From an uncultured Thermococci archaeon (GTDB lineage Archaea > Methanobacteriota_B > Thermococci > Methanofastidiosales > B48-G16): 64,000 nt of DNA. The notes beneath the pieces were generated by a model. The model was not told where the DNA came from and did not search any database. It saw only the letters and a program-made list of their open reading frames with translations. Position 1 is the first letter of the stretch; every line of letters starts with the position of its first letter. The DNA is taken from contig CAZQQT010000007.1 of the NCBI GenBank assembly GCA_964595645.1, positions 72,809-136,808 of the forward strand, read 5' to 3'. Position numbers and translations under genes: made by a program. Below are positions 16,501 to 38,565 of this stretch, piece after piece.

Positions 16501-16579
16501 GAGTGAGTACAAAGAATTCAAGAAAAATCTGGATAGCGTCACAACGAAAGTGATCAAACTCGCGAGGAATATCCTATGA
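13565..16579 (+). CDS. hsdR: Type I R-M restriction subunit HsdR (SF2 helicase/translocase plus N-terminal PD-(D/E)xK nuclease)
   Basis: Nuclease motif (PDIVIFVNGIPIGVIECK). Helicase motif I (TQGSGKSLSM), motif II (DEAH: VMADEAHRTQ) and later motifs (TGFDAP, QAIARVNR). 1004 aa. ATGA overlaps at both ends. Confidence 0.9.
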   Translation: MTQDWTEYHLTEKPALDLLEELGYTVYDINETFERPERDLLREVLLLNNVRSAIQRINPWISENNLNKAVNMIRPTRIRAAGMIEANEITYTRLVKYISVPQDLGKGKKNQTVKYIDFEHPENNEFLALNQYKVKGHEKIKPDIVIFVNGIPIGVIECKNETTCDDPEDDAIDQLRRYQNIRYENENEGAEQLFYPNQILVAAWRDSASSCAIGAPARQFKAWKDPYPHTKEEIRSVVGRNVTLQDILLFSLFKKDRLLDLIQNFIVFERAGNKLIKKLARYQQYRAVTKAVERIKNADTLIDRSGTVWHTQGSGKSLSMLFLALKLRRMEGLGNPTLLVVTDRIDLDDQITGTFERCGFPNPIQAQDTDNLKELLRRNVGKTIMTTVHKFQERVKEKYPVLTEDTNVFVMADEAHRTQYKDLAANMRRALPNACYLGFTGTPIDKEERSTLRTFGSYIDTYTIDESVDDGMTLNILYEGRIPELRVEGRDLDDLFDRIFKNYSNEEKKKIKEKYATERDIAEAKSRIERICLDIIDHYESKIYPLKGQIVTVSREAAARYKEAMDRFNGPESAVIISSDQNDPPLLKKYHTSAGERKHLIETFKDPESNLCLLIVCDMLLTGFDAPVEQVMYLDKPLKEHNLLQAIARVNRRFEEKNYGLIVDYYGVFDYLQEALAVFNKKDIENAVTPIKDEKPRLERTYRQVMQFFEGVDLDDLDECILTFKDEDKRLKFKRAFKAFAKSMDIVMPDPIADPYREDLKTLGKIYKAVRNHYRDSSLDIKGVGGKVKRLIDEHIRATDIKILNEPVSILDKEEFDRTVEEHENIETKASEMEHAIRSEISVKMEENPVFYQSLKERLEEIIEKRVQGRFTFTKQLEEMREIIHEIRDVRTKAEKLGLNEREFALYELLLDEREHERVETVSESTGAYHPGGPELHINKKVRDLSKQLMDDLEDMRVVDWKEKKMILKEMRKVIKLTLSEYKEFKKNLDSVTTKVIKLARNIL

Positions 16580-17313
16580 AATCTACAGAAAAAGTCTCCC
16601 TTGGAAAAACAACAATTCACTACAAAATTGTTCGGAGTAAGAGAAAGACGTTGGGAATTAAAGTTGGACTTGAAGAAGGAGTAATTGTTAGAGCACCGAC
16701 TCACTTACCGGTGGACGTTATACGAAAAAAGGTACAAGAAAAGGGGGACTGGATTCTACAAAAACTTGAAAAAATGGGTGAAATTGAGCCGAAACCAGCT
16801 CCTAAAGAATTTATGAGTGGAGAAAAATTGCCGTATTTAGGAAGAAGATATAGGTTAAAGGTTAATAAGGAAAATAATAGTTCTAAAGAAGTTGATGTGA
16901 GATTATATCGTGGTAAATTTTATATTGGCCTCAGCTCTCAGATAAACGAGAGTGAGAGAAGGACGAAAATACGGCAAGCGCTAATCAAATGGTATAGATC
17001 GCACGCACAAAAAAGAATCGCAGAAAGAGTAGAGAAGTATCAATCCAAAATTGGTGTAACGCCTGCGAAAGTAAAGGTAAAGCATCAAAAGAAACGGTGG
17101 GGGAGTTGCTCCAACAAGCGCAACCTGAACTTCAACTGGAGAATTATCATGGCCCCGATATCGCTTGTTGACTACGTGGTAGTACACGAACTTACTCATC
17201 TTAAGTACCCACATCACTCAAAAGAGTTCTGGGATACTATTGCATCAATTCTTCCTGACTATAAAGAAAGACGTGAAAGGTTAAGGGTAAAGGGAAACAC
17301 GTTAGAATTTTAG
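16576..17313 (+). CDS. DUF45/YgjP-like (WLM/M48-type) zinc metallopeptidase
   Basis: HExxH motif in the typical context (DYVVVHELTHLKYPHHSKEFW). Translationally coupled to hsdR. This family recurs next to hsdR genes. Confidence 0.7.
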   Translation: MKSTEKVSLGKTTIHYKIVRSKRKTLGIKVGLEEGVIVRAPTHLPVDVIRKKVQEKGDWILQKLEKMGEIEPKPAPKEFMSGEKLPYLGRRYRLKVNKENNSSKEVDVRLYRGKFYIGLSSQINESERRTKIRQALIKWYRSHAQKRIAERVEKYQSKIGVTPAKVKVKHQKKRWGSCSNKRNLNFNWRIIMAPISLVDYVVVHELTHLKYPHHSKEFWDTIASILPDYKERRERLRVKGNTLEF

Positions 17314-17370
17314 ATAGAGAGAATAGTATAGTAGAAGATTTATAAAGATCATCTGCGAAGAGAGAGGAGG

Positions 17371-18081
17371 GTGTGTGGTATGAAAAATTCATTCACGCTT
17401 CGTGAACTGCCAGAAGAAGAAAGACCAAGAGAGCGTCTTCAAACTCTTGGAGTGAATTATCTCTCAATGCAAGAACTATTAGCCTTAGTAATTGAAAGGG
17501 GAAGTAGAGGAAAGAATGTGTTGACTATTGCCCAAGAACTCCTCGCTACGTTCGGGAACCTCTCCAAAATCAAAGAAGCTTCCATAGAACAACTTCAACA
17601 GGTCGATGGAATCGGGATTGCTACTGCATGTAAGCTAAAGGCCTCGCTAAAATTAGGTGAAAAAGCATTGATCGTGCACGAACGGTATGGACAAAAAGTG
17701 GAATCACCGGAAAATATATTCCATTTACTTAAAAATGACCTGGGAAACAAAAAGAGAGAACATTTTAAAATAATCTTATTGAACACGAAAAAACATATTA
17801 TAGCCATTGAAAATATCTCTATCGGATCTTTAAATAGTAGCATTGCACACCCACGAGAGATATTCCGTTCTGCTATTCAACATGCAGCGGATTCTGTAAT
17901 TTTGGTGCATAATCATCCTTCGGGTGATCCTAGTCCAAGTGATGACGATATTGAGCTCACTGAAAGACTCATAAAGGTGGGAGATATTTTGGGTATAAAA
18001 GTAGTAGACCATGTGATTATCGCTGGTAAGTCCTTCGTGAACCTTCGGGGGGAGGAAGAAACTGCTGGAATATGGAAATAA
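17371..18081 (+). CDS. radC: RadC-like JAB/MPN-domain protein (HhH plus JAMM metalloprotease motif)
   Basis: HhH region (LQQVDGIGIATACKL). JAMM motif (ILVHNHPSGDPSPSDDD). Confidence 0.75.
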   Translation: MCGMKNSFTLRELPEEERPRERLQTLGVNYLSMQELLALVIERGSRGKNVLTIAQELLATFGNLSKIKEASIEQLQQVDGIGIATACKLKASLKLGEKALIVHERYGQKVESPENIFHLLKNDLGNKKREHFKIILLNTKKHIIAIENISIGSLNSSIAHPREIFRSAIQHAADSVILVHNHPSGDPSPSDDDIELTERLIKVGDILGIKVVDHVIIAGKSFVNLRGEEETAGIWK

Positions 18082-20565: not shown

Positions 20566-22368
20566 ATGTCGAAAACGAAAAGGAAACATCCAAGAAAAAA
20601 AGGTAAGCGCACGAACACCCGCATGATCCCCACGTTGGGGAGGTTAGGCGGATACGCCCGACGCCACTGGCTGAAGATTGCCGGTGCCATGGTAGCCGTG
20701 GTGATCTCCACGGCCTTGGGGCTCGTTCCTCCCTGGCTCATCCGGTACGGCGTGGATACCATAATACTGAAAGGGAGGACGGATCGTCTCGTGATTATAG
20801 GGTTGGCAATGGTCGGTACCGCCGTACTGAAGGGGTTTTTTGACTTTGTAAAAAGTTATGTATCGGAGTACATCGCACAAACCATCATCCATGACATCCG
20901 CGTGAACCTGTACGAACATCTCACCACCCTCTCATTTTCCTTTTACGATGAATCGAGAACAGGCGATCTCATGTCCCGGCTCACCGCCGATGCAGACTCA
21001 CTTCGCCGTTTCCTGGGGAGAGTGAGTACCTACGTTTCTGAGAATATCCTGACCATCGCCGGTATTCTAGTGGTCATGATGATCTGGGACTACCGTCTGG
21101 GAATGCTGTACCTGTTGCTCCTTCCGTTCATGGTTTTCGGAATGACCATATACGCCACCAGAGTGAGACCGATGTTTCGGAAGGTACGGCGAACATTTGC
21201 CGCGCTGACCCATGTAGTCCAGGAAAACTTCGTTGGCATCGAGGTAATCAAGCTTTTTGGAAGAGAACGCGAGGAAGAAAAAAAGTTTCACGCACAAAAC
21301 AAGCAGTACATCGACATCAATATAGAAGCAGCTAAAGTCTCAGCGTTGTGGATGCCGTATGTCCATTTTCTTATGGGGTTGGGCACCGCGTTAGTTGTGT
21401 GGTACGGCGGTCGGCTGGTCATCACCGACGTGATTTCTCTGGGGACGTTGGCAGGGTTTATCAGCTACATTGCGATGCTGCTGCGTCCTGTGAGACAGAC
21501 GGGAATGATGATAAACTTCAGCAGCCAGGCTGTGGCTGCCGCCGAAAGAATATTTGAAGTGATGGACACCTCCTCGGAGATAGAAGACGCCCCCGATGCC
21601 TACGATCTACCCGCAGTGGAAGGTGAGGTAGAAGTTAACGATGTCAGTTTTTCCTACCGGGGAGGAACACAGGTGTTGAAGGATATCAACATCCACGTAG
21701 CGCCGGGACAGACAGTGGCGATAGTGGGCCCCACCGGCGCCGGAAAAAGCACGTTGCTCCATCTCCTCCCTCGATTTTACGATCCCGACGAGGGACAGAT
21801 CCTCATAGATGGACACGATATCAGGGAGGTCACACTCAACAGTTTGAGAAAACAGGTGGGGATTGTACTGCAACACACCTTTCTGTTCGGAGCCTCTATC
21901 AGAGAGAATATCTCCTACGGTAAGCCGGAAGCCCCCATGGACAAGATCATTGAATGTGCTAAAATTGCGCAGATCCATGAGTTCATTGAATCGTTGCCCC
22001 TCGGGTATGAGACGCCGATAGGAGAACGGGGCGTGAACTTATCCGGAGGGCAAAAACAGCGGTTGGCCATGGCCAGAGTGTTACTGACCGATCCGGCGTT
22101 ACTGATACTGGATGAACCCACCTCCAGTATCGATGCTGAGACAGAGGAGAGAATGCGGGAGGCCATGAAGGACGTGATTAAAGATAGAACAACGTTTGTG
22201 ATTGCACATAGACTGTGGACGGTAAAACATGCAGATAAAATTCTGGTAATTAAAAACGGCGAGATAGTAGAAAAAGGAACACATCACGAACTACTTTCTC
22301 GTGGCGAAGGGTTCTATACGGACGTATATCAACAGGTCCTGAAAAACGAAGAGGCAGGTGAGAAATAA
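20566..22368 (+). CDS. ABC exporter, fused permease-ATPase (MsbA/MdlA-like), first half of a heterodimer
   Basis: N-terminal 6-TM domain then NBD with Walker A (GPTGAGKST), LSGGQKQR signature, Walker B (ILDEPTSS), H-loop (AHRL). Confidence 0.85.
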   Translation: MSKTKRKHPRKKGKRTNTRMIPTLGRLGGYARRHWLKIAGAMVAVVISTALGLVPPWLIRYGVDTIILKGRTDRLVIIGLAMVGTAVLKGFFDFVKSYVSEYIAQTIIHDIRVNLYEHLTTLSFSFYDESRTGDLMSRLTADADSLRRFLGRVSTYVSENILTIAGILVVMMIWDYRLGMLYLLLLPFMVFGMTIYATRVRPMFRKVRRTFAALTHVVQENFVGIEVIKLFGREREEEKKFHAQNKQYIDINIEAAKVSALWMPYVHFLMGLGTALVVWYGGRLVITDVISLGTLAGFISYIAMLLRPVRQTGMMINFSSQAVAAAERIFEVMDTSSEIEDAPDAYDLPAVEGEVEVNDVSFSYRGGTQVLKDINIHVAPGQTVAIVGPTGAGKSTLLHLLPRFYDPDEGQILIDGHDIREVTLNSLRKQVGIVLQHTFLFGASIRENISYGKPEAPMDKIIECAKIAQIHEFIESLPLGYETPIGERGVNLSGGQKQRLAMARVLLTDPALLILDEPTSSIDAETEERMREAMKDVIKDRTTFVIAHRLWTVKHADKILVIKNGEIVEKGTHHELLSRGEGFYTDVYQQVLKNEEAGEK

Positions 22369-24158
22369 TGCGAGGCGGATTCGGTCGTAGAATTTCATCG
22401 GGTGATGAAGAAGATTTCTCCTTGAAACAGCTGGATAAACGAGCACTGAAATTTCTATTGAAATATCTCAAAAAACACACGAAGGTCCTATTGATCGCCA
22501 TCGCCTGTATGGTGATAGTCACGTTGGCCAGTCTCGCCGGTCCCTTTTTAATCAAGATAGCCGTTGATGACTACATCATGGAGGGGGATATGGCTGGACT
22601 GAACTGGGTAGTGATACTGATGGTACTCTCGTATGGGATATACTGGCTTTTTTCCTACTTTCAGACCTACCTCTCCAACTGGATAGGGCAGAAGATCGTG
22701 GGAGATATCAGAGAGGATCTTTACCGTCATCTTCAGGAACTCTCCATCGACTTTTTCCACAAGCGCAATACAGGAGACATCATGTCTCGGGTTACCCATG
22801 ATGTGAACGCCCTCTCCGATCTGGTGTCAACAGGGTTTGTCCACCTGCTCAATGATCTCCTCACCGTCACAGGGATTGTGGTAATAATGGTGGTATTAGA
22901 CGTGAAACTGGCCCTGGTAAGTTTCATTACCATCCCCTTCATTTTCTTTGTGGTATACGTTCTTGGCAAAAGGATGAGGAAAGCATACAGAGGAGTCAGA
23001 GAAAAGCTGGCCGAACTAAACGCTGATGTTGAAGAAAATTTATCTGGAATTAGACTGATTCAAGCGTTAAATAGAGAGTCAATAAACACGGGCAAATTCA
23101 GTAGGTTGAGCTGGGAAAATTTAAAGGCAAACCTGAAGGCGGCCTCCTACTTCTCCCTTTTATTCCCAGTAATGAACCTGAGCAAAGTGTTCGGAGAAGC
23201 GTTGGTACTGGGATACGGAGGCTGGGGAATTGTTGAAGGAACCATCTCGTTAGGAGTTGTAATGGCTTTTATGGAATATGTACGGAGATTTTTTGCGCCG
23301 CTGGCTGATTTAAGCCAGGTGTACAATACGTACCAATCTGCCGGTGCGGCCTTAGACCGAATCTATGAGTACACGTCCATCGAACCCACAATTGAAGAGC
23401 CGGAGACCCCCGTATCGCCGGGAACGGATGTAAAGGGACGGATCGAGTTTAACCATGTGACGTTTAATTACGGGAAAGAACCGGTGATCGATGGGTTGAA
23501 CCTGCGGATTGATCCGGGAGAGGTATTGGCCCTGGTAGGTCCTACCGGCGCAGGAAAAACAACGATTGTGAACCTTTTGACAAGACTCTACGATGTGGAT
23601 CACGGTGAAATTTTAATAGATGGAATCAACATAAAACAATACTCTATACACACTCTTCGATCCCTCATTTCAGTTGTGCCCCAGAATATATTCCTTTTTG
23701 ATACCTCCATAAAAAACAATATTCGCTACGGTAAGCCGGGAGCCAGTGACAAGGAGATAGTTGAAATAACCAAACAGGTACAGGCCCATGAGTTCATCAA
23801 GGATTTGCCTAAAGGATATGAGACCCGTGTCGGTGAAGGAGGAGTCAAGCTTTCCGGCGGTCAGAAACAGTTGGTTTCATTCGCCCGGGCAATGCTGGCC
23901 GATCCTACAATACTGATCCTTGATGAAGCCACCTCCAGTGTGGATGCCTACACAGAAGTCCTCATCCAGCGGGCCATGGAAACGTTGTTAAAAGGGAGGA
24001 CGGTACTGATGATCGCCCACCGGTTTGCTACGCTGAATAAGGCAGAGAGAATCGGTGTGGTAGAAAATGGAAGAGTGACCGACACCGGCACTCATGACGA
24101 GCTTATGGAAAGAAACAAGGTGTATCGGGATCTGTATACCACGCAAAAAAGGGGTTAA
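22368..24158 (+). CDS. ABC exporter, fused permease-ATPase, second half of the heterodimer
   Basis: Same architecture (GPTGAGKTT, LSGGQKQ, ILDEATSSVD, AHRF). Its start shares one nucleotide with the upstream stop (TAATG). Confidence 0.85.
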   Translation: MRGGFGRRISSGDEEDFSLKQLDKRALKFLLKYLKKHTKVLLIAIACMVIVTLASLAGPFLIKIAVDDYIMEGDMAGLNWVVILMVLSYGIYWLFSYFQTYLSNWIGQKIVGDIREDLYRHLQELSIDFFHKRNTGDIMSRVTHDVNALSDLVSTGFVHLLNDLLTVTGIVVIMVVLDVKLALVSFITIPFIFFVVYVLGKRMRKAYRGVREKLAELNADVEENLSGIRLIQALNRESINTGKFSRLSWENLKANLKAASYFSLLFPVMNLSKVFGEALVLGYGGWGIVEGTISLGVVMAFMEYVRRFFAPLADLSQVYNTYQSAGAALDRIYEYTSIEPTIEEPETPVSPGTDVKGRIEFNHVTFNYGKEPVIDGLNLRIDPGEVLALVGPTGAGKTTIVNLLTRLYDVDHGEILIDGINIKQYSIHTLRSLISVVPQNIFLFDTSIKNNIRYGKPGASDKEIVEITKQVQAHEFIKDLPKGYETRVGEGGVKLSGGQKQLVSFARAMLADPTILILDEATSSVDAYTEVLIQRAMETLLKGRTVLMIAHRFATLNKAERIGVVENGRVTDTGTHDELMERNKVYRDLYTTQKRG

Positions 24159-24173
24159 AAAATAGAAGATTTC

Positions 24174-24392
24174 TTGAAGAAGGTGGAGAACAGATATAAT
24201 CCGGAAAAAATCCTTGTGTTCGGCAGTAGAGCACGGGACGATCACCTCACTACCAGCGACTATGACGTGGTCACAAGTTTGAAGATATCCCCTTTCTTGA
24301 GAGAATCTCTCAACTCCCCTTCATTCATCATACGATGCATCATATTTCGCTACATGTACGTAGGTTGTAGTTCTCCTAAGTGCCTAGAATAA
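24174..24392 (+). pseudogene. Remnant of a minimal nucleotidyltransferase (MNT) antitoxin gene. Only the first ~35 codons are MNT-like.
   Basis: N-terminus (ILVFGSRARDDHLTTSDYDVV) matches the MNT GS-x9-DxD core. The rest of the ORF is low-complexity with no MNT similarity. Confidence 0.4.
24297..24313. repeat. 17-bp perfect palindrome TTGAGAGAATCTCTCAA
   Basis: Read directly from the sequence. Lies inside the MNT remnant, ~140 nt past the ABC exporter stop. Confidence 0.4.
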
Positions 24393-24437
24393 GAATATAC
24401 CATATTGGAGATATATTTAAATAATACGAAACGCTAG

Positions 24438-24788
24438 ATGTACATGGAGATGGAGAGAAAAATGAAAGAAGTAAAAGAAGTGTCGGAGGCAGTGAAAAGC
24501 ATTCTAGACGAGATGGGAGTCGAATATAGAGAAGTGATGTTATTTGGGAGTAGAGCTACAGATATGTCTGAAAAAGAGAGTGATTGGGACCTTTTGGTGG
24601 TCCTTAAGAATCCTATCAATGCAAAAGAAAAGAAAACCCTGTGGGTTGAGATACATGAAAAATTCCATGAACGGTTCCCCTTTACGTCTATCGACATTAT
24701 CGTAAAAGACGCAGACTCGTTTGAGAGGGAAAAAACAATCGCGAATACCATCTCCAATGAAGTGTATTTGGAAGGAATCCGTATATGA
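24438..24788 (+). CDS. Minimal nucleotidyltransferase (MNT) antitoxin of a HEPN/MNT pair
   Basis: Motif (LFGSRATDMSEKESDWDLLVV). Its stop overlaps the start of the downstream HEPN reading frame (ATGA). Confidence 0.7.
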   Translation: MYMEMERKMKEVKEVSEAVKSILDEMGVEYREVMLFGSRATDMSEKESDWDLLVVLKNPINAKEKKTLWVEIHEKFHERFPFTSIDIIVKDADSFEREKTIANTISNEVYLEGIRI

Positions 24789-25048
24789 AAGAAAAAATAG
24801 TACTCCGTTGGATGGAAAAGGCAAGGAATGATCTGAAAGTTGTCGAGCATTAAATAGGCGTAGACGACGCACCCACAGATATGCTCTTATTTCATTGTCA
24901 GTAAGCCGTTGAGAAATACCTAAAGGCCTACTTGACATGGTGCGATGTCCGAATTAGAAAAACACATGATCTTGAAACTATTCTCTATCACTGTATAGAA
25001 AAGGGTAAAAAATTTTATAGCCGAAAGACTAGAGAAAAAAGGATTTAA
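24785..25048 (+). pseudogene. HEPN-domain toxin gene interrupted by two in-frame TAA codons (at 24851-24853 and 24902-24904)
   Basis: A single frame reads MKEKIVLRWMEKARNDLKVVEH*IGVDDAPTDMLLFHCQ*AVEKYLKAYLTWCDVRIRKTHDLETILYHCIEKG.... This matches the HEPN helix pattern (..FHCQQAVEKyLKA.L) with stops replacing expected Q/L codons. Confidence 0.6.
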
Positions 25049-25218
25049 AGGTACTAAAAATAATGAATAGAACGAGAAGATTACTATATAATATTATTTA
25101 TTTCAAAAAGCGTTGAAAACGCACCAAGGCTCTGTATATCAAGACCCTGGTACCTGTAAGTGTACTATTCTGTGATCGGAAAGGAAAACATATTTAACGA
25201 TATACCCACAAAGAGGGT

Positions 25219-26235
25219 ATGGGATCGGTGGAGAACACACGAATTATCGTGATATCAGACACACACCTGGGACACAGCCGCGCGAATGTCACAGCGTTCA
25301 ATGCGTTTCTACAATGGCTCGCCAAGGGAGATCTCCGGGTACGAACAACAGACGGGGAACGGGAGCTGCCGTACCCCGATACGCTTCTCCTCCTCGGTGA
25401 TATCCTCGAACTCTGGGAGCCGGCGAACGACAGTTTCGGATCGGTGGGAGACCAGTCGAAAATGCTGCTGGAGAAACTGATCGAGCTCCCCTGTAAGAAG
25501 ATCTACGTTCTCGGGAACCACGACACGAGTCTCGAGGAGCTGCGGGCGAAGAAGTACCGGCTGCCCGGTGGCGACTTCGAGATATTCTACAACCATTTTC
25601 CCGCAGAGGTCACGGATACGGTGACCATCGGGGCACAGAAGTACTTCTTTATGCACGGCCACCAGTTCGACAAAGACACGCGGAAGTTCGGGAAGTGGGG
25701 TGAGATCGGTCCGTCGATCCTCCTCTCCCTACAGAAAATCAATAAGAAGATGTTTCGTCTTCACGGGTTCGGATCGCTCCTGCTCGCACTACTCTTCTAC
25801 TGTCTCCACCTGTACTTCGGCGATACCTGCCCACTCTACGGGACTGCCGCCCTCTCCCCCTTCTGGGGCACGAATCTCCTCTGGCGGATGGGACGGCCTG
25901 TGGCGAGACGGTTCTGTAAGGCGCGGGAGGAGCGTATCTACTCTATTGTGGAACATGGATGGTACGAGGCTGCACGGGACACCATCGCCGCAGACAACCT
26001 CGTGTTTGCCCACACGCACGCCCCAGGAATCGAACGGGGCGACAGGCTGGAGCGTACCACAGGGAAACGGGTAAACAAGGAGCTGCTGGTGAACAGCGGG
26101 TCGTGGTTTTCCGGGGAGACAATTGAGAACACCTTTCTCTATATCGATGCCGACGCGATCCTCCTTTTTAAATGGGGGGAGATACCGGAGCTCGTGATGA
26201 AGCACTCCGTGAGAGGAGAAGATAAATTTAAATAG
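25219..26235 (+). CDS. Calcineurin-like metallophosphoesterase with a C-terminal membrane segment
   Basis: Motifs (VISDTHLGH, LLLGDILE, GNHD, FMHGHQFD, AHTHAPG). Hydrophobic helix (LLLALLFYCLHLYF). Confidence 0.7.
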   Translation: MGSVENTRIIVISDTHLGHSRANVTAFNAFLQWLAKGDLRVRTTDGERELPYPDTLLLLGDILELWEPANDSFGSVGDQSKMLLEKLIELPCKKIYVLGNHDTSLEELRAKKYRLPGGDFEIFYNHFPAEVTDTVTIGAQKYFFMHGHQFDKDTRKFGKWGEIGPSILLSLQKINKKMFRLHGFGSLLLALLFYCLHLYFGDTCPLYGTAALSPFWGTNLLWRMGRPVARRFCKAREERIYSIVEHGWYEAARDTIAADNLVFAHTHAPGIERGDRLERTTGKRVNKELLVNSGSWFSGETIENTFLYIDADAILLFKWGEIPELVMKHSVRGEDKFK

Positions 26236-26263
26236 AAAAAGTAGAAGAGGAGTATAGAGTCCT

Positions 26264-26518
26264 ATGAAATCAGTAGATATTCCTGAGGATGTACTAGCCT
26301 CAATAAAAATACCGGAAGAAGATATGGAGAAAGTGTTAAAGGTAGAGTTGGCGATAGCTCTTTATCAGCGGGGTATTATTTCACTAGGAAAAGCAAGAAA
26401 AATGGCAGAAATGGACAAATGGGAGTTTTTGGAGGAACTTGGCAAACGAAAAATTTCGCCTCACTACACAGAGAAAGAATTGAAGGAGGATATAAACTTT
26501 GCTAGAGGTAATAAGTAA
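26264..26518 (+). CDS. UPF0175-family small protein, putative antitoxin partner of DUF3368
   Basis: 84-aa ORF (..VELAIALYQRGIISLGKARKMAEMDKWEFLEELGKRKI..) immediately upstream of, and overlapping, a DUF3368 PIN-like gene. Confidence 0.5.
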   Translation: MKSVDIPEDVLASIKIPEEDMEKVLKVELAIALYQRGIISLGKARKMAEMDKWEFLEELGKRKISPHYTEKELKEDINFARGNK

Positions 26519-26986
26519 CTCATCGCCGCTCATCCATCTTGCGAAAATAGGAAGATTAAATCTATTATCATGCTTTTTTGATGGAGTAGTTATTCCTGAA
26601 GCAGTATATAGAGAATGTGTTGTTGAAGGGGAAGATAAAAAGGACGCAAAAAGGATTAAAATGGCGGAATGGATTAGTGTAGAAAAAATAAGAAATAAAG
26701 AGCTAAAAAAAGCATTTATGATGATTTTAGATGAGGGAGAAGCAGAAACAATTGTACTAGCGCTGGAAAAGTCTGCCGATCTTCTCCTCCTAGATGAATA
26801 TGAAGCAAGAAAAGTGGCAAGAACCTACAACTTACCTATTACGGGACCATTGGTATACTGCTAAAGGCAACGTATGGAGGAAAAATACCAACACTGAAGA
26901 ATGAATTGGACAATTTAAGAGGTACGGGTTTCTGGTTGCATGAAGAATTATATAAGAAAATATTGAGAAAAGTAGACGAATTATAA
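26499..26986 (+). pseudogene. DUF3368 PIN-like nuclease gene with a -1 frameshift near 26845
   Basis: Frame 1 gives ...ARKVARTYNLPITGPLVYC*. The conserved C-terminus (LLKATYGGKIPTLKNELDNLRGTGFWLHEELYKKILRKVDEL) continues in the +1 frame. One missing A in GGA(A)CC would restore ITGTIGILLKA. Confidence 0.5.
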
Positions 26987-27003
26987 ATTTAAAACCTCTA
27001 TTC

Positions 27004-28184
27004 TTAGATCTCCGGTTTCGCTTTATACTTGAACTGTTTCTCGTACAGCTGCTCCGCCCGTTCCAGGGTATCCGCATCCTCCGGTGACTTATCGTACCGA
27101 ATACTCGTGATCCGCGCAAACCGGAGCATACCCTGACTCGTACTGCGGACTCTGCTGGATCTCATTAAACGCGACTTCCACCACAAGCTCGGGCCGAACG
27201 TAGACCGTGTACGCATCTTCATCCCGTTTCAACTCCAGCAACGTCTCCGTGAGCTCCTGGAACTGGGCGTCCGTGGGCCCCTTGAAGGTTTTCCCAGCAT
27301 ATGCCCCTTCCGGGTGGCGAGATGGTAGTTGCTCAACCAGTTCTTCCTGCGTCCATGGCCCCACTCCGCCGCGATGATGAGGAGATCCAGGGTCTCGGTG
27401 GGCTTGATCTTTTTCCACGTTTTCTCGCGTTTTCCCGGAATATACGGGCTGTCCAGCTCCTTCACCATCACTCCCTCGTGGCCGGCACTGATCGCCTCCT
27501 CCAGAAAATGACGAGTCTCCTCCTTCTCGTCGGTGATAATCCTCTTTACCATGAAGGATCCGGCGAACTCGCTGAGGAATTCCGTCCGTTTTCTATACAG
27601 TTCATCGAGGAGCGTCTCGCCATTCAAATAGAGAAGATCGAAGAGGTAGAGCTTCAGCGGAATCTCCTCGGTAGCCGCCATCACATCATGGATGCGCCGA
27701 AACCGTCGGAGGAGCTCCTGGAAGGGTAACGGTTTTCCGTCTTTCTCCGCGACGACCTCGAGAACGATCCCCTCGCTGGCACCGATTCGCATCTCTCCAA
27801 AGATCGTCTTCACGATGTGGTCTGCTCCAGCACGGAGGCCTGGCTGAGAAGGCTGGCCACAATCTGCTCCTTCCGTTTCCGCTGCGAGGTGCGCGCGATC
27901 TTGCGGAAGTACTCGGACACATCCGTGATAGTCAGCTCCTGGTCGATCAGGGTTTCCTGGTGTTTTTCCCGTGCCTTCTGGACCGTGTTCCACGAGACAT
28001 CCAGTGTCGTGCTCGACGACTCGGGAAATATCTGGCCGGTGATGAGGAGGACGGCCGGCGCGATCTCATCCTCATTCAACTGCTGCAGAAACGTAGCGAG
28101 GTACTGAATTTTCTCCAGCCGCTTTGTGGTGGACGCCACCCGCTCACAACACGCTGCCAGCGCCCGGAACTTCATGATATCCAC
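27004..28184 (-). pseudogene. Relic of an ATP-dependent DNA ligase. The N-terminal DNA-binding-domain fragment is intact. Most of the DBD and adenylation motif I are deleted. Motifs III-VI and the OB/C-terminus survive across three frames.
   Basis: Fragments: DBD (MDIMKFRALAACCERVASTTKRLEKIQYLATFL..LLITGQIFPE). Motif III-IV (EGIVLEVVAEKDGKPLPFQELLRR, LYLFDLLYLNGETL). Motif V (EGVMVKELDSPYIPGKREKTWKKIKP). OB (LDLLIIAAEWGHGRRKNWLSNYHLA). C-terminus in other frames (PELVVEVAFNEIQQSPQYESGYA; LRFARITSIRYDKSPEDADTLE). Total span ~1.2 kb versus ~1.7 kb for an intact archaeal ligase. Confidence 0.6.
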
Positions 28185-29188
28185 CTGTCCAACGACGACG
28201 TCCCGTGGAGACGGCGCATTCTCGTGGTGATCCGCTCGATGCTCGTGTCGGAGAAATCTCTGACCCGGAGGAACGCCACGAGCTCGTCCTCGCAGTACTG
28301 CGTGTACTCGAGCGTGTACTCGTCCGTGACCTTTGGATGTAAGAAAATCTCTTTGATCGCGCTATAGGTGTCCGGAAGGTTTTCGCGGATCTCCGACGGG
28401 AGATCCTCCAGATGTCCATGGGATTTGAGGAGCTTCAGGCCTGTTTTGGGACCGATACCACTGATACCCTGGGTGAAGTCGTTGCCGATGAGAATAGAGA
28501 GTTCCACGAGCTGTTCCCGTGTGATCCCATGGTGATCCAGGAACTGCTGGAGATCGATAACCTCCGGTTCGTACTTCCTGAACCGTCCTGACGACGGAAG
28601 GTGCTCCTTCCCCTGAATGGTTACGTACCGTACCTGGCGGTTCGCCCCGAATAACAGCGTGTCGTAGTCCCGGCTGGCCGCAGCGTAGACATCCTTCGTC
28701 ATGTACGCCGCCTGTACCTCCGCCTCCGACGGCGCTTGCACATACGGGATGCCGAGATACGTCAACAGTTGTTTCGCCTCCTCCACCATCTCGTTGGTGA
28801 GAGACGAGGTCATGGTTGATTTTGAGTACGCGGTGGCGTAATCCTCCTTTTCCAGTGCCTCCTTCCACTCCTCCCATGCCTTCTTCTTTACCTCCCGCCG
28901 TTTTTCGATCTCCGCTTGTTTGAGCTGAGGTGGTGTGCCATCGAACACGTAGACCAGCCGGAGATGGTGATCGCTGAGCAGTCGGGTAGCCCTGGAGGCG
29001 AGTCCGATCAGATGAGAAGTGACGTTGCCTCGGCTATCGGTGAGAGATCTCCCGCTGCGTGTCCTGATTAACGCGAGAAACTGGTAGAGCACGTTGTTCG
29101 CATCGACCGCAAGTGTCGTGCCCGAGAGCGCGGAGAGACTCACGACTTTTTTCGTGATAATCGGGGTGAAGTTCACGCCCATACCCAT
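28172..29188 (-). CDS. fen: Flap endonuclease 1 (FEN-1)
   Basis: XPG-N/XPG-I architecture (MGVNFTPII..LAVDANNVLYQFL, ...YVQAPSEAEVQAAYM). H3TH (ILIGNDFTQGISGIGPKTGLKLL). 338 aa. Confidence 0.85.
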   Translation of the reverse strand: MGMGVNFTPIITKKVVSLSALSGTTLAVDANNVLYQFLALIRTRSGRSLTDSRGNVTSHLIGLASRATRLLSDHHLRLVYVFDGTPPQLKQAEIEKRREVKKKAWEEWKEALEKEDYATAYSKSTMTSSLTNEMVEEAKQLLTYLGIPYVQAPSEAEVQAAYMTKDVYAAASRDYDTLLFGANRQVRYVTIQGKEHLPSSGRFRKYEPEVIDLQQFLDHHGITREQLVELSILIGNDFTQGISGIGPKTGLKLLKSHGHLEDLPSEIRENLPDTYSAIKEIFLHPKVTDEYTLEYTQYCEDELVAFLRVRDFSDTSIERITTRMRRLHGTSSLDRWIS

Positions 29189-29212
29189 AAGAGGGAACGA
29201 AAGTATAAAAGT

Positions 29213-30355
29213 TTACTCAAAAAGGTACGCGTACTCGTTGAACAGCGGATCGTCCATGAACGCTTTCTCCGCCTCCTGGAGACTCATGGGGAGTGAGGTC
29301 ACGCCGTTTTTTTCCCGTGCAGCCTCATCGTACTCGTAAACGTTATCTTTCACAGGATTGGGAAGCGTGCCATCGCCGGAGAGCCCTGCCTTCAACAGGA
29401 AGAAAAAGGCGAGATAGGGGTTGCATGTCGGATCGGGAGAACGTATTTCTATTCGTCCTGAAGGCGGCACACGGATCAGCGCAGAACGGTTGGAGTGTCC
29501 CCAGCAGACGTACTTCGGTGCTTCCTGCTCACCGAACCGCTTGTAGGAGTTCTTCACCGGGTTCGTCACGCGGGTTAACCCCCGGATATGGTAGAGCTGT
29601 CCCGCGATAAACCGTTTCCCACGATCCGTCAGTTTACCGTTATAGAAAAGGTTCTTTCCATTCTTTCGCAGTTCTTGGTGAACGTGCATCCCGGAGCCGG
29701 CCTCATTTTCAAACGGTTTTGGGAGGAACGATACTTCGACACCGTACTGCGTACAGAGCCGCTTTAATGTTTCTCTACAGAAAAGAATGCTATCTGCCAC
29801 GCGCAACGCAGCGGTAGGAAGAAACTCCAGCTCGTACTGGCCTCTTCCGTTCTCATGGTGAAACTTCTCCACAGAAATTCCTTCTCTCTCCAGAACCACA
29901 ACGAGATCGTCGAGGATTCGGTGGCCGAGCGTATCGGCAGTGGTGAGGTACGAGTCTTCATCTATCGGGTCTCCTCCTTGTGTCAGGAAAAACTCCAGCT
30001 CCGGTTTGAGGGTATACGCCGCGTCCTCTTCAGCTAACGCTGTCTTCAGCAGTGAACGTGTGCACTTCTTGTACGGTTTTCCGTCGGGATGGACGATATC
30101 ACACATAAGCCATCCCTCTGTTCTCTCTCCATTCACTATTTTTAAAGAGGCGAGATCCGGTTTGAGCCGCATATCGCTTCGGAAAATGCTGCCGAATCGG
30201 GGAATGGATGAACTGTCAAATCCAATGCCCTCCTCCCTCGCTTTCTCAAACACGGACGGCGTGATGGAAAGTGTGTAGATCCTCCCGGGTACATCGACAA
30301 ATTTCAACCGGATAATCGCAATTTCCTGTACGACATCCTCTATCTCATGATTCAT
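29213..30355 (-). CDS. glnA: Glutamine synthetase-family protein (short GS / GlnA-like, 380 aa)
   Basis: GS catalytic-domain motifs (KPELEFFL, HVHQEL, NPYLAF..). Shorter than canonical GSI, so it could be a gamma-glutamyl-amine ligase paralogue. Confidence 0.7.
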   Translation of the reverse strand: MNHEIEDVVQEIAIIRLKFVDVPGRIYTLSITPSVFEKAREEGIGFDSSSIPRFGSIFRSDMRLKPDLASLKIVNGERTEGWLMCDIVHPDGKPYKKCTRSLLKTALAEEDAAYTLKPELEFFLTQGGDPIDEDSYLTTADTLGHRILDDLVVVLEREGISVEKFHHENGRGQYELEFLPTAALRVADSILFCRETLKRLCTQYGVEVSFLPKPFENEAGSGMHVHQELRKNGKNLFYNGKLTDRGKRFIAGQLYHIRGLTRVTNPVKNSYKRFGEQEAPKYVCWGHSNRSALIRVPPSGRIEIRSPDPTCNPYLAFFFLLKAGLSGDGTLPNPVKDNVYEYDEAAREKNGVTSLPMSLQEAEKAFMDDPLFNEYAYLFE

Positions 30356-30942
30356 GTAATTTATTAGGAGGAAATCTATAAAAAACTTACGAAATAGGTT
30401 TTATAAACATTTGGAGAACTTCAATACGAAAAATGTAGATTTTGTTTATCTTTTATCCAATTTTTTGTGATAGTATGTACCTAACTTAGCAAGAAAAGAA
30501 CATGTGTGAAAAACACCGAGAGTGTCTTGATCACTTTTGCGAAAGGGAAAATGTTTTAGTAAAAAGGCGAAAATATAAGCTTATTTGTGTAAAAAAGCTT
30601 ATAAATAGGCTTATATCAGTAATAGTAGTGATAAAAATGAGAAAAGAAGAAATAACAAAAATCAAAAAATTACGAGGTGAGAACCATGGAAGGATTTGAG
30701 CTTGTGTACATACTGGAACACGAGATGAGACAGAAGAAGAAATAATTATTTTTTTCTCTTTTTTTCTGATCACATTTTTACATCCGCTATCCTGTGATCG
30801 TTTGCCCATCACCTTATGTCATCTTCCGTGTACCTCTATCCTGGTATGATGGACGATCGATGGAGAAGGAAAACCATCTGACATTCATATACTCCCTCAC
30901 TTCAGCGATAAAGTTTTAAATGCTACCATATACGGAATTGTA

Positions 30943-31893
30943 ATGAATAAAAGAGAAAAGAAACCAAGTTTTTGGGAGATGGTACGGTTACCCTTCCTAT
31001 TCGCTATAATAGTTCCTCTAATCTCTGGTACTGTAGTTTCAATTTCTATCTCTGGTTCTTTTAACTTTTTTGGATTTGCACTTGTATCTATTATTGGAAT
31101 CAGTCTCCACATCACAACGAACGTGTACAACGATATATACGATACAAAACAGGGGGCAGACAATGAAAAATCGAAGAAGAGTGAATTTAGTGGTGGATCG
31201 GGGATACTCGTTGAACATCCAGATCTCCTTCCACAGATGTATACGATCGCCAGAAGTGGAATCGTCGTGGGACTGATATGCACCTTCTTACTCATGTTCT
31301 TTATCGATCCGCATCTATGGGTCCCTCTCTGGGCAATCATCGGTATCTCAGTGTTTTTTAGTAAATATTACACGGCTGAACCCATCAAGTTCGCGTATCG
31401 AGGAGTGGGTGAGATCGTCGTATGGATCGGTTTCGGTCCTCTCGCTGTATTACTCGCTGGGCTCGGCCAAAATATAGGTTTTCATCCCACCTTGGTATCC
31501 ATCTCCCCTATCACCGGGTTTGCCACTCTTTTCATCGTGTGGATGGGTGAGATGGTCGATCTCCCGACGGACATTGAGGGGGGGAAGCGAGGGTTGGTGG
31601 TCCGGCTGGGATTTAAAAAGTCGAGGTACGGCTTGATTGCAGTCCATATACTCGCTCTAACCAATAGTGCGCTTGTAGCATTTCTCATTTTTAACCCGGG
31701 CTGGCCTCTCTTGATCACCCTCGTTCCCTATGCTGTATTTTGGCCAAAGATATGGTCTGGGATGAAAGGGATGAATAGATACGAGGAAAAAATAAAAAAT
31801 ATCTCTAAACTGAATTTTGGATTGTATGCTTCATTTTCTTTTTTTCTAATGGGTGGATATGGAATTGATCTGTTGTTAAAAACATATTTTTAG
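30943..31893 (+). CDS. UbiA-family aromatic/isoprenoid prenyltransferase (polytopic membrane)
   Basis: Asp-rich motif (NVYNDIYDTKQGAD) and 8-9 TM helices. Confidence 0.7.
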   Translation: MNKREKKPSFWEMVRLPFLFAIIVPLISGTVVSISISGSFNFFGFALVSIIGISLHITTNVYNDIYDTKQGADNEKSKKSEFSGGSGILVEHPDLLPQMYTIARSGIVVGLICTFLLMFFIDPHLWVPLWAIIGISVFFSKYYTAEPIKFAYRGVGEIVVWIGFGPLAVLLAGLGQNIGFHPTLVSISPITGFATLFIVWMGEMVDLPTDIEGGKRGLVVRLGFKKSRYGLIAVHILALTNSALVAFLIFNPGWPLLITLVPYAVFWPKIWSGMKGMNRYEEKIKNISKLNFGLYASFSFFLMGGYGIDLLLKTYF

Positions 31894-31894
31894 A

Positions 31895-32926
31895 TCATAA
31901 TCTCAAAAGTGCTCCTTTTTCCAATAGGTATTTGATTAAGGCAGGAATTGGACCGGGTATGCCCACAGGACTGAAGGAGATCAACCCGTTGATATCACCG
32001 AGACTTATCACCAAGGGTGTCTTCAATTTCCTATACGTCCTTAAGGATCGGCCTTCTCGGCTCCTTACAATATTTTCCGATATTATTCGAGAATGGGAAT
32101 CTGCATTATGTCCTGTTTTCTCTTCGTCTATGTCGGTTATATCGCCACCGGCAAAAATGGTAGAATAACCTTTCACTTGGAGGTGTTTGTTGACCTTTAA
32201 CGATCCATTTTCAGCGAACGATGACTCATCAAACCTTTGAAATATCCCCGTGTCGTAGCCCAGCCCAGCACTCCATATGCATACATTCGCATCGATCTCT
32301 CTGCCGTTATCAGTTTCAAATTTACCGTGTTCACGATCGATGACCTTCTCACCAAATATCAGTTTAACGCCGTTCTTCCTGAGATATCTCTCTGCAAAGA
32401 AAGAAGCCATCGGGGGATTCCTCTCGATCAGTCTCTTGTGGGAATGAACCAACACTATCTTTTTATCAGTCTTCGATGCCAGTTCCGCAGCAGCTTCAGT
32501 GCCTATCAGGCCGCCACCCACTATCAGTATAGTATCTGCCTTTTTGACCCTTCTTGACAGCTTTTTTACGTCTTTTCCTGAGTTGAGTGTGAAAACATCG
32601 CGCGTATCATCCAGATAGATCGGGTATCGAGCGCCCAACGCTACCACTAAGATATCGAACTCTGATCTCCTTTCGTCCGTAGAAAAGTATTCCGGAGTGA
32701 TCGTGACCACTCTCTCGCTGATGATCTCAGCGTTATCTAAAAATTGAGAATAGCGTTTGATAATCTTTTCGTGATACTCAGGATCGGTAATTAATTTAGG
32801 TAAAGAGGGGTAGTACTCGAAATACTCCTTTTCATCAATCAGAAACACCTCGAGATCCTTCTTCCGATCCAGTCTTTTTGCGACCATCGACCCGCAGAAC
32901 CCTCCTCCTAGGATCGCTACTTTCAT
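31895..32926 (-). CDS. Type II NADH dehydrogenase / FAD-dependent pyridine nucleotide-disulfide oxidoreductase
   Basis: N-terminal FAD GxGxxG (KVAILGGGFCGS) and second dinucleotide fold (TILIVGGGLIGTEAAAEL). Confidence 0.7.
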   Translation of the reverse strand: MKVAILGGGFCGSMVAKRLDRKKDLEVFLIDEKEYFEYYPSLPKLITDPEYHEKIIKRYSQFLDNAEIISERVVTITPEYFSTDERRSEFDILVVALGARYPIYLDDTRDVFTLNSGKDVKKLSRRVKKADTILIVGGGLIGTEAAAELASKTDKKIVLVHSHKRLIERNPPMASFFAERYLRKNGVKLIFGEKVIDREHGKFETDNGREIDANVCIWSAGLGYDTGIFQRFDESSFAENGSLKVNKHLQVKGYSTIFAGGDITDIDEEKTGHNADSHSRIISENIVRSREGRSLRTYRKLKTPLVISLGDINGLISFSPVGIPGPIPALIKYLLEKGALLRL

Positions 32927-33150
32927 ATTTGTATAGAATTTTAGATAGATAAATAGTTTATGTTTGTTTTTTATCCAGATAGAACGATGGAAAAGATACT
33001 TCGGATGTCCTCCCCATCCTGCTCTTTATTTTAAAATTTCTTACAGAAATTATCGTTGCAATATTTTATCTTTTATATAAACCGAGAATAGAAATAAATT
33101 AAAAAAACATTTTTCTATACCAACTGAGAAAGTATGAAGAGGAGTAACAA

Positions 33151-33789
33151 ATGCTGAATGCTGTAGTAGAAACCTTGAAAGAGGGTATAGACCTAGAAAA
33201 TCTTCGAATCCACGGAAAAAGCTTTAAAAAGGGGAGAATGGCGCACCACGAGTATTTTTTTCTCACTGTTGAGACGGACGAGGAAAGTAAACGGTTGATG
33301 CGTGTGAGTCTGTACCACGGAGACCCTCCTCATTACCATCCCTGGATAGAACTCTTTGGTATCACCCCCGAGCTCACCATCGGTGATAAGAAGATTGATT
33401 TTTTCGATTCGGAACTCGAGGACGCGATTCTAGATCTCTTCTCTCGTCCACTCGGGAAGGGAGGAAGAATTTTCATCGAGTACTACGATGATCCGGAAAC
33501 GAGAAACATGTTATCCGTTGGTGTTCCGAAAAGCTGTACCCGACTCGGATTCAAACTTTTTGAGCGAGGGGTTACCTGGTTTAAGGATTGGTACTTTGCT
33601 GAAGGGTTCCGTGAAGGGGGACAGAAACTGCAGGCTGAAAAACCCATAGATAAAGAACACAGGAAAAAACATCTGCGATCGATCAAACGTAACGCGATGG
33701 ACTTCCTAAAAAGAAAAGAAGAAAACAAAGATAAATTTAATAAAAGAGCAAGATCACTAATAAACCAGCTAGACGTGGATGGTGAGTAG
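33151..33789 (+). CDS. Conserved hypothetical protein (212 aa)
   Basis: ORF with a good AAGAGGAG-type upstream context. No recognisable catalytic motif. Confidence 0.4.
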   Translation: MLNAVVETLKEGIDLENLRIHGKSFKKGRMAHHEYFFLTVETDEESKRLMRVSLYHGDPPHYHPWIELFGITPELTIGDKKIDFFDSELEDAILDLFSRPLGKGGRIFIEYYDDPETRNMLSVGVPKSCTRLGFKLFERGVTWFKDWYFAEGFREGGQKLQAEKPIDKEHRKKHLRSIKRNAMDFLKRKEENKDKFNKRARSLINQLDVDGE

Positions 33790-33874
33790 ATGAACCAAGC
33801 GTGATAACTCGCAACTCTCATCGCCATGCGAAGATACCGATCAAACAAAGGTTATTAACCATTAAAATCAATGA

Positions 33875-34216
33875 GTGTATATGGAAAAACGACGGGTGAC
33901 TATTTCGATTCTCACCGGCGCAGTACTCGGCGTATTGTGCATTATCGGCGTAGGTACGAGGATCGGGTTCGAGGAGAACGAACTCTTCCTGTTCGCCATG
34001 TGGTACAACAGAGTGCTCATGGGGCTGGTGGTTGGGTTCGCCGGCGATATCACGATCATCGATGCTGATACGAACTGTATTGTTCGGGGACTGCTACTCG
34101 GTCTACTGGTCACATCGGCGATAACACTCACCAGCGGTTTCATGGATTGGCCCAGTTTTTTCGCCGGTATCGCGTACGGTGTCATCATCGATGGAGTGGC
34201 AACGAAGTGGGGATAA
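33875..34216 (+). CDS. Small polytopic membrane protein (113 aa)
   Basis: Three or four hydrophobic helices (ILTGAVLGVLCIIGV.., LMGLVVGFAG.., LLLGLLVTSAITL..). Confidence 0.4.
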   Translation: MYMEKRRVTISILTGAVLGVLCIIGVGTRIGFEENELFLFAMWYNRVLMGLVVGFAGDITIIDADTNCIVRGLLLGLLVTSAITLTSGFMDWPSFFAGIAYGVIIDGVATKWG

Positions 34217-34352
34217 CAGGACTACGATCGTTATCTTGTAGTATGTTCTATTATAAACTACCTCCGTAAGTCTGTATCCTTTTTCAGAATGCAAAATATT
34301 AATTGTCAATTTGAAATGCATTTTTGTAGTTTAAAAGTCTCTAGAAAAGAGT

Positions 34353-35711
34353 TTATAGGCTATTTATCTTGTCCACGTAGACATCTGCATCAAATTTTCG
34401 CTTCAGTCCGCTCGCGCTCATATACCGCACCTTCCCATATATCGGTCGCTCCTTCCACGCCCGATCATGCTTCCCAAAACACCACGCGACACCGGCATAC
34501 CCATTCGGATCCCGTCCATCGAGCTCGTACGTATCGTTGAGTGTGACAGCTATCCGGTACGCCTCCTTCGGCGTCTCTGCCCACTCGAGAATCTTCTTGC
34601 CCCAGTACATCCGCATGTAGCTATGCATCTTTCCCGTTTTCACCATCTCCATCTGGGCGGCATTCCAGTACGGATCATGTGTCTCTGCACGGTCGAGCTG
34701 CTCGCATGTGTACGTGTACTCTCGTGGATCCTTTTCATGTGCCATGAGCGTCTCTCTCGCCCAGCCGGTGACCGCATCGAACCTATCGTAGTGGTCATTG
34801 TAGGAGACGAAGTTTATCGCAAGCTCCCTCCGGACGATCAGCTGCTCGAGGAAGGCATCCTGCGCCTCTTTTTCTACTTCCGCGTTCCGCACACTCAGTG
34901 CGATCTGAATAGGCGAGATCTGTCCAAAATGAAGGTAGGGACTGAGATCGGAGATACACGCTGCCGTCGGATCATTACTGCACGTAGGATATTGCTCCAG
35001 CCGATCCCTGATGAACGTGCGCATTCGCGTTTCCGCGGGGGAATACCCACCGGTAAACTGCGATGATGGACCAACACTCGTATCGATATCGAGATCGTCC
35101 AGCAGTTTCTCCGTGTGCTCAACAGATATCTCAGCGAGATCGTAGTCACGCGAAGATACCTTCACCTTTCGCTGTGGCACCGGCGTCAACAATCGGGGGA
35201 GATTGGTGGTGATCTTCTTTCTGATGGTGTAGGCAGCGTACTCCTCCTTCTCTGATGCCTGCTCAACAGGAACCGCGACATCGGTTTCCACCTGTACTAC
35301 ACGACAGTCCAGATGGACGAGTTGCTGCCGCCATGCTCTGAGATGTCGAAGGTAACCGCGGTCCGTGACGACAAGTGCCGCATCCTCGCCGAGATCGGCG
35401 GCTCCTTTCCATGGAACCGTTTTCTCCACAACAAAATGGATTCCTCGTTTCTTCAGTGCGTTCTTCACTTCTTTCAATCCCTCGAGCATGAACATGTAAT
35501 GTCGGAGATTCGCCGCAGGGTATCTATCAGTCAGGCCGAAGTAGACGAGTACGGGCAGTCCCATCCCATTGGCTCGCTCAATCGCATACTCCAGTGCATG
35601 GTTATAGACCGTTCGCTGTGCGTGCTGCATCCAGTAGAGCACATACTCCTTCCCAGGCCGCTCATTGTACTCATTTAACTCCTGAATCCTCGCTCTATCG
35701 ATCTCTCCCAT
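34353..35711 (-). CDS. phr: Deoxyribodipyrimidine photolyase, class II CPD type
   Basis: N-terminal class II signature (YVLYWMQHAQRTVYNHALEYA). C-terminal FAD-binding region (WNAAQMEMVKTGKMHSYMRMYWGKKILEW). Confidence 0.85.
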   Translation of the reverse strand: MGEIDRARIQELNEYNERPGKEYVLYWMQHAQRTVYNHALEYAIERANGMGLPVLVYFGLTDRYPAANLRHYMFMLEGLKEVKNALKKRGIHFVVEKTVPWKGAADLGEDAALVVTDRGYLRHLRAWRQQLVHLDCRVVQVETDVAVPVEQASEKEEYAAYTIRKKITTNLPRLLTPVPQRKVKVSSRDYDLAEISVEHTEKLLDDLDIDTSVGPSSQFTGGYSPAETRMRTFIRDRLEQYPTCSNDPTAACISDLSPYLHFGQISPIQIALSVRNAEVEKEAQDAFLEQLIVRRELAINFVSYNDHYDRFDAVTGWARETLMAHEKDPREYTYTCEQLDRAETHDPYWNAAQMEMVKTGKMHSYMRMYWGKKILEWAETPKEAYRIAVTLNDTYELDGRDPNGYAGVAWCFGKHDRAWKERPIYGKVRYMSASGLKRKFDADVYVDKINSL

Positions 35712-38310: not shown

Positions 38311-38565
38311 TCACCTATCTAATCCATGATAGATATCCTTTCTGTGCCCTACTGTCACTATAAACACTTTTTTCTCTTCTTTATCTATTTCAAAAATCAC
38401 TCTGTACTTTCCCACTCTCAAACTCCATAGATCGATGCCCTTCAAATGTTTTCCAAAGGACTGAGGAGTTTTTCCTCACTTTTTTTATCTTATTCTGTTC
38501 TCATTTTCTTTATCTACCCTGATAAGAATTTTTACCGCTTCGTCTGAGAGGAACATCTCATGCAT
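38311..38565 (-). pseudogene. RelE/ParE-family toxin gene disrupted by two frameshifts at homopolymer runs (A7 and T5 on the coding strand)
   Basis: Three frames concatenate to MHEMFLSDEAVKILIRVDKENENRIR / KKVRKNSSVLWKTFEGHRSMEFESGK / YRVIFEIDKEEKKVFIVTVGHRKDIYHGLDR, matching the RelE pattern (..yRiiYeid.e.k.v.il.vghRkdvY). It begins 1 nt after the stop of the upstream antitoxin-like gene. Confidence 0.5.

Follow-up and report, generated by a model that had tools for sequence, protein, structure and literature searches.

Can an archaeon lose the DNA ligase gene that stands directly behind its FEN-1 gene (fen) and, if so, which enzyme would then seal its Okazaki fragments? The question arises from a 64-kb stretch of DNA (hereafter the window) in which the remains of an ATP-dependent DNA ligase gene (lig) lie beside fen. 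We consider, at a probability of roughly 0.8, that these remains are a young and genuine pseudogene of a canonical Lig1-type ligase at the ancestral position of a fen-lig pair, and that another ligase would be encoded outside the region that could be read. The remains are colinear and occupy 27004-28175 on the minus strand, in four segments (A to D, the second divided into B1 and B2) and three reading frames. Their parts are as follows, with residues numbered on an intact 506-aa reference ligase (P0001):

27004..28175, minus strand: whole ligase pseudogene (tblastn with P0001 and protein and DNA alignments in agreement)
27819..28175, minus strand: segment A, N-terminal part of the DNA-binding domain, reference residues 1-119 (DNA_ligase_A_N; 62% identical to P0001 1-119)
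27761..27819, minus strand: segment B1, DNA-binding domain residues 120-139, HIVKTIFGEMRIGASEGIVL (tblastn, alignment and frame mapping)
27289..27760, minus strand: segment B2, C-terminal half of the adenylation domain and start of the OB fold, residues 255-411 (DNA_ligase_A_M and alignment)
27125..27288, minus strand: segment C, OB-fold domain, reference residues 412-466 (DNA_ligase_A_C and alignment)
27004..27126, minus strand: segment D, motif VI (LRFARI) and C-terminus, residues 467-506 (tblastn and alignment)

A mechanical list of open reading frames renders this region as four overlapping minus-strand ORFs. The most upstream, 27810-28184, has a mechanical start at a GTG (28184) and matches the Pfam family DNA_ligase_A_N (E 2.7e-16); read on alone, segment A runs into a stop at 27810-27812 and yields a product of 121 aa. 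The next, 27229-27993, matches DNA_ligase_A_M (E 1.1e-29) over profile positions 79-204 of 204 only, and 27089-27418 matches DNA_ligase_A_C (E 1.1e-07). ORF 27004-27222 has no Pfam match and owes its identity as ligase to alignment with orthologues. All three domains that mark the Lig1/archaeal type (PF04675, PF01068 and PF04679) are thus present and colinear along the minus strand, in different frames, and a tblastn search of the window with P0001 recovered residues 1-119, 120-139 and 255-506 and nothing beyond. A continuous frame of ~506 codons is not found; the largest product (187 aa) scores 140 bits on TIGR00574, whose cut-off is 217.8. Plus-strand ORFs that overlap the relic match no family and were treated as spurious.

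Segment B2 carries EVVA, which ends motif III, as well as LYLFD (motif IIIa), EGVMVK (motif IV) and WKKIK (motif V). Motifs IIIa, IV, V and VI align with those of the orthologues, motif VI in a different frame, and segment D keeps the original stop codon (27004-27006) after last residues, KQFKYKAKPEI, that align with orthologue C-termini. Motif I (KxDG), with the adenylated lysine, is absent. The first-pass annotation, made from the letters alone, had described a decayed ATP-dependent ligase in three frames (27004-28184) beside an intact fen, and this description holds well beyond chance: the Pfam matches and the aligned C-terminal stretch (27004-27126) account for the pieces, the Pfam and TIGR profiles assign them to the Lig1-type family and not to another family of nucleotidyltransferases, and its neighbour is a full-length FEN-1 on TIGR03674. 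The same annotation listed as surviving the N-terminal domain, motifs III, IV and V, the OB fold and the C-terminus, which is correct except that only the end of motif III is left; it also rightly reported the loss of KxDG, since K208LDG of the reference lies among the deleted residues 140-254.

When protein collections were searched with the stitched fragments, ATP-dependent DNA ligases came back in their thousands. The closest of them are intact, 505-509 aa long and about 70-75% identical to the relic, with local identity of up to 75%; several of these best matches are labelled as from a Theionarchaea or Methanofastidiosia archaeon. The best 120 matches are all 503-553 aa in length, and over 390 shared alignment columns the relic is 0.65-0.72 identical to its orthologues. 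No intact allele more than 75% identical was present among the proteins searched, and a scan of GTDB species genomes, the source genome not being one of them, gave a best locus at 72% identity. Nor do the collections hold close relatives, the 90%-identity clusters of both fragments being singletons. The relic is orthologous to the fen-linked ligases of Theionarchaea and Methanofastidiosia (P0001, P0006 and the gene at 8348-9877 of JACVGW010000040.1, our locus L001), with which it shares the order of domains and the position directly after fen; it differs from them in the absence of residues 140-254 including motif I, in its three frameshifts and in a different downstream neighbourhood. P0001 in turn aligns over the DNA-binding, adenylation and OB domains with the solved enzymes of Thermococcus sp. 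1519 (3RR5), Pyrococcus furiosus (2CFM) and Archaeoglobus (3GDE) at E values of 1e-100 to 1e-105, and this alignment fixes the identity of the motifs that the relic has kept and lost. The solved archaeal Lig1-type enzymes are 553-571 aa long, with a longer N-terminal domain, as against 506 aa for the Theionarchaea-type reference. A literature search on Theionarchaea ligases found nothing relevant.

Two neighbouring features frame the relic:

28172..29188, minus strand: FEN-1, intact, 338 aa (Pfam XPG_N and XPG_I; TIGR03674)
26264..26864, plus strand: low-GC toxin-antitoxin pair, UPF0175 antitoxin and PIN-like/DUF3368 protein (Pfam and Logan annotation)

FEN-1 scores 377.3 bits on the archaeal equivalog profile TIGR03674 (fen_arch; cut-off 351.95), over positions 1-338 of 338, and is 66-69% identical to the FEN-1 encoded upstream of intact lig in three related loci (L001, L009 and L010). 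As read from the sequence, fen and the relic overlap by 4 nt, ATGA at 28175-28172, the stop TGA of fen occupying 28174-28172 and the ATG of the ligase 28175-28173; the same 4-nt overlap was read in L009 and L010. The first-pass remark that fen and lig are often neighbours is borne out in relatives, with intact lig directly after fen in eight related loci, six of them Theionarchaea-like (L001 and L007-L011) and two from Bathyarchaeia (L003 and L004); in one Brockarchaeota locus and one Asgard locus the two genes are not adjacent. Because intact lig follows fen in these eight loci, the relic sits, by gene order, in the ancestral slot of its lineage's canonical ligase.

Synteny with the relatives ends at the fen-lig pair. 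In relatives an MJ0043_C-like gene comes after lig; its place is taken here by the toxin-antitoxin pair, which is convergent on the 3' end of the relic and has a GC3 of 0.28-0.35 as against 0.75 for the relic. The relatives' genes downstream of lig were not found in the window. Some 19 kb from the relic, the window encodes an internally repetitive protein of 442 aa (45767-47095, minus strand) that has no Pfam match and resembles one encoded two genes downstream of lig in relatives (L009 11249-13612; L001 11428-12655); this would point to insertions or a rearrangement behind lig, unless the resemblance is simply that of paralogous repeat proteins. Directly upstream of fen there is a glutamine-synthetase-like gene (29213-30355, minus strand) of only 380 aa. 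Of the 462 positions of the GlnA model it reaches to about 421, and its scores lie under every NCBIfam cut-off (GlnA, 279 against 429; type III, 190 against 470); the protein is a short and divergent paralogue or else one that has lost its C-terminal end.

Protein and DNA alignment with the intact lig genes of L001 and L007 accounts for the state of the relic by exactly four lesions, all of them deletions:

27818/27819, minus strand: frameshift 1, -1 nt (DNA alignment with L001 and L007; frame mapping)
27760/27761, minus strand: in-frame deletion of 345 nt, junction GIVLE/VVAEKDG (DNA alignment)
within 27289-27300, minus strand: frameshift 2, -1 nt (DNA alignment and frame mapping)
27124-27127, minus strand: frameshift 3, -2 nt (DNA alignment and frame mapping)

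At frameshift 1 the relic reads CAGACC-ACATCG where the orthologues have ..CCTACAT.... Frameshift 2 is most parsimoniously placed in an A4 run at 27289-27292 (GGGAAAACC), the exact base being not resolvable; frame B ends there with GHMLGK and frame C resumes with TFKGPTD, where orthologues read GNMIGKTFKGLTD. Frameshift 3 leaves TATG--CTCCGG in the relic as against TATGCACTGCGG in the orthologues. Measured against L001 the large deletion is 345 nt long, and against L007 342 nt. The 115 aa that it took away (reference residues 140-254) comprise what remained of the DNA-binding domain, the linker, motif I (EYK208LDGARIQ) and the adenylation domain's first half, as far as motif III. A tblastn search of the window at E<=1 for the missing 115-aa part gave chance-level matches only, as did a search for repeats at the deletion junction, where a microhomology of 4-5 nt (GAGG) is possible, depending on the ancestral sequence that is assumed.

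The extent of decay is accordingly about half of what had been supposed. The first-pass annotation had put the loss at about 250 aa from an expected ~560 and called the gene heavily degraded, but the loss comes to 115 aa in one in-frame deletion together with 4 nt in the three small frameshifts, the nearest intact orthologues are only 505-509 aa long (reference, 506 aa), and outside the four lesions the relic is ~70% identical to orthologues with no in-frame stop. The overestimate arose because the solved Thermococcales-type enzymes (553-571 aa) are longer than the Theionarchaea-type reference.

Consistent with this, the signs of age are slight. The 390 restored codons contain no stop, which by simulation places neutral divergence below ~0.07 substitutions per site at 95%, and GC3 is 0.754 in the relic and 0.732 in fen. 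In a leave-one-out comparison the relic has three unique changes (D to E, L to P and K to Q) at 136 otherwise invariant columns, and intact orthologues have 0-4. Synonymous sites are saturated at this level of amino-acid divergence (~30%). Given the absence of stops in the restored frames, the fen-like GC3 and the lack of a clear excess of changes at invariant sites, the ligase pseudogene is, as judged from its sequence, young and recently inactivated. No significant relaxation of constraint is seen, and this fits a young pseudogene and equally a lesion that is not fixed in the population.

We propose that the relic is what is left of the canonical ligase gene of an archaeon related to Theionarchaea and Methanofastidiosia, where lig stood second in a translationally coupled fen-lig pair. 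Its frame was broken three times by four independent deletions (-1, -345, -1 and -2 nt), the longest of which took away motif I with its catalytic lysine and one half of the adenylation domain. No product of the locus can self-adenylate or seal nicks, since the lysine that is adenylated and half of the nucleotidyltransferase domain are missing; translation via the ATGA overlap is likely to yield no more than a 121-aa piece from the DNA-binding domain. Loss of a sole replicative ligase is lethal. Four lesions have accumulated where one would have been lethal in a cell with a single ligase, and the gene would therefore have been dispensable already, with another ligase covering its function. We infer that such an enzyme, encoded elsewhere in the genome, seals the Okazaki fragments; candidates are a paralogue, an ATP-dependent ligase gained by horizontal transfer and an NAD+-dependent one of bacterial type. 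The first-pass annotation had likewise expected a second ligase, ATP- or NAD-dependent, or a recent replacement, and on this argument the expectation of a second ligase is sound.

The search for another ligase covered the 64-kb window and a flank of ~9 kb from the Logan assembly, ~73 kb in all. For a second ATP ligase in the window, tblastn at E<=1 returned chance-level matches only; no NAD+ ligase, RNA ligase or other ligase occurs among the window ORFs scanned with Pfam, and there is none in the 9.2 kb of Logan sequence left of the window (L014 1-9800, SRR7048220_850). That left flank encodes an MFS transporter, a second AOR, an Asp/Glu racemase, an M19 dipeptidase, a PGA_cap protein and components of ECF/ABC transporters.

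It must be asked whether the lesions are real and, if real, whether they are fixed. The first-pass annotation had allowed that reads or a corrected assembly might restore one open frame, and a sequencing or assembly artefact hiding an intact gene could draw on frameshift 2, which may fall in a short A run (27289-27292). A second assembly instead reproduces every lesion and every base: Logan contig SRR7048220_21234 matches window positions 21895-34622 over 12,728 nt at 100.000% identity with no gaps, the whole relic included, and both the 121-aa product (ended by frameshift 1) and the 187-aa product (running across the deletion junction and ended by frameshift 2) are recorded from NCBI and from Logan alike. 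None of the ~55 other window ORFs in the Pfam scan is split, among them a complete his operon, two ABC half-transporter pairs, AOR, GlmS and HsdR with the type I restriction-modification genes; three frameshifts within 1.2 kb are therefore specific to the ligase gene. Two of the three small lesions lie outside homopolymers, one of these small lesions is a 2-nt loss, and a clean in-frame loss of 345 nt without a junction repeat is atypical of misassembly, so that an artefact seems very improbable indeed. A somewhat different matter is a real lesion confined to some cells, or to some chromosome copies of a polyploid archaeon, with an intact allele in the others. The two assemblies probably share the same reads and come from the same run, metagenome assemblies collapse population variants, and both assemblers would then have followed the deleted path; moreover, a relic without measurable relaxation of constraint is what one would expect if the lesion were very recent or balanced by an intact copy. 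Against this, four lesions on one haplotype require prolonged neutrality and not a transient variant, two different assemblers took the identical path, and the proteins searched, Logan gene calls included, contain no near-identical intact ligase (best, 75%). We think an unfixed allele unlikely.

If the lesions are both real and fixed, the pair as a whole might be surplus, a redundant second copy arisen by duplication or received from a related archaeon, with the primary pair elsewhere and the superfluous ligase now decaying. The GC3 of fen and the relic, the highest in the window at 0.73-0.75 against 0.5-0.68 for most other genes, would agree with this, as would the low-GC toxin-antitoxin flank and the synteny that stops at the pair. 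Yet FEN-1 is intact and above its equivalog cut-off, the window has other housekeeping genes of high GC3 (homoserine dehydrogenase, 0.675; metallophosphoesterase, 0.714), and no second fen or lig occurs in the ~73 kb read; we hold a redundant pair to be improbable, if not quite negligible. It is in any event a special case of another ligase elsewhere and not a true alternative to it. There remains the notion that the fragments are not debris at all and serve some non-catalytic purpose, as a DNA-binding-domain peptide or an OB-fold protein, or that translational recoding rejoins them. The first fragment is still translationally coupled to fen and codon composition is preserved, but recoding is unable to restore a catalytic lysine that has been deleted, related loci hold no split or shortened ligase (the best 120 matches being all of full length, as above), the downstream fragments are without conserved starts, and each fragment stands alone in its 90%-identity cluster; a retained function is thus very hard to credit. 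The reading that we prefer is still that of a young pseudogene of the canonical ligase, with another ligase at work elsewhere in the genome.

To our knowledge, the replicative ligase of archaea is regarded as universally of the ATP-dependent Lig1 type, and the documented exceptions of which we are aware involve a laterally acquired second ligase. It is tempting to go further and to suppose that a free-living, Theionarchaea-related archaeon has very recently lost its canonical Lig1-type ligase and that its Okazaki fragments are sealed by a non-orthologous ligase, such as a bacterial LigA that uses NAD+ or an ATP ligase derived from a virus or plasmid; this we offer tentatively, at somewhat less than even odds. 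If true, the replacement of a core replication enzyme would have been caught with the displaced gene still recognisable at its ancestral fen-lig position. There are precedents for ligases that have become redundant or have been displaced. In Haloferax volcanii, LigA or LigN can be deleted individually and not together, so that with its laterally acquired NAD+ ligase in place the species can do without the native ATP ligase (PMC1684257); a published table lists MG-II archaea as having a bacterial NAD+ ligase and no ATP ligase (PMC4153887, Table 3); and in high-light Prochlorococcus partial genes of the displaced ligase type persist, although catalytically dead (bioRxiv 10.1101/2020.05.11.089284). 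Unlike in these three cases, it is the decaying gene alone that is seen here, and displacement is inferred from it.

A well-verified recent pseudogene is an ordinary kind of object, if in this instance an unusual gene, and implies no new mechanism; its main interest is as a pointer to a probable replacement of the ligase. A young pseudogene at the conserved fen-lig position would mark a lineage in which the canonical ligase has just become dispensable, and the replacing ligase, if identified in the full genome, would provide an example, with a date and a direction, of a core replication gene displaced by a non-orthologous one.

The window as a whole is strongly mosaic in composition, with GC between 34% and 57% per kb and GC3 from 0.28 in the toxin-antitoxin genes to 0.75 in fen and the lig relic; fen, the relic and a metallophosphoesterase gene (25219-26235) are the genes of highest GC3. 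A defence island of low GC (34-43%) extends over 2449-18081 and encodes a 993-aa AAA_5 (McrB-like) protein, an NmeDI_C-like protein, a YgjP-like metallopeptidase, RadC and a type I restriction-modification system (hsdM/hsdS/hsdR) in which a 503-aa PIN-domain ORF is inserted between hsdM and hsdS. Scans for Rfam families and tRNAs found nothing in the window. Its HisD has best matches of only 60-62% identity and of mixed affiliation, too little to place the host taxonomically. Two further remnants are of toxin-antitoxin type: a 72-aa nucleotidyltransferase remnant (24174-24392), comprising the first 42 of 93 profile positions and adjoining an intact 116-aa gene of MNT type (24438-24788), and a 44-aa ParE toxin remnant (38311-38445) whose match is confined to positions 56-89 of an 89-position profile. 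A class II photolyase gene (34353-35711, minus strand; TIGR00591, 534 bits against a cut-off of 550) is unexpected in a sediment-type archaeon, the window being otherwise anaerobe-like in its AOR genes. Finally, the his operon includes a 417-aa fusion (48521-49774, minus strand) of a HisA-type barrel with HisI (PRA-CH) and HisE (PRA-PH), a three-part arrangement that is uncommon and for which the Logan assembly calls a product with the same three domains.
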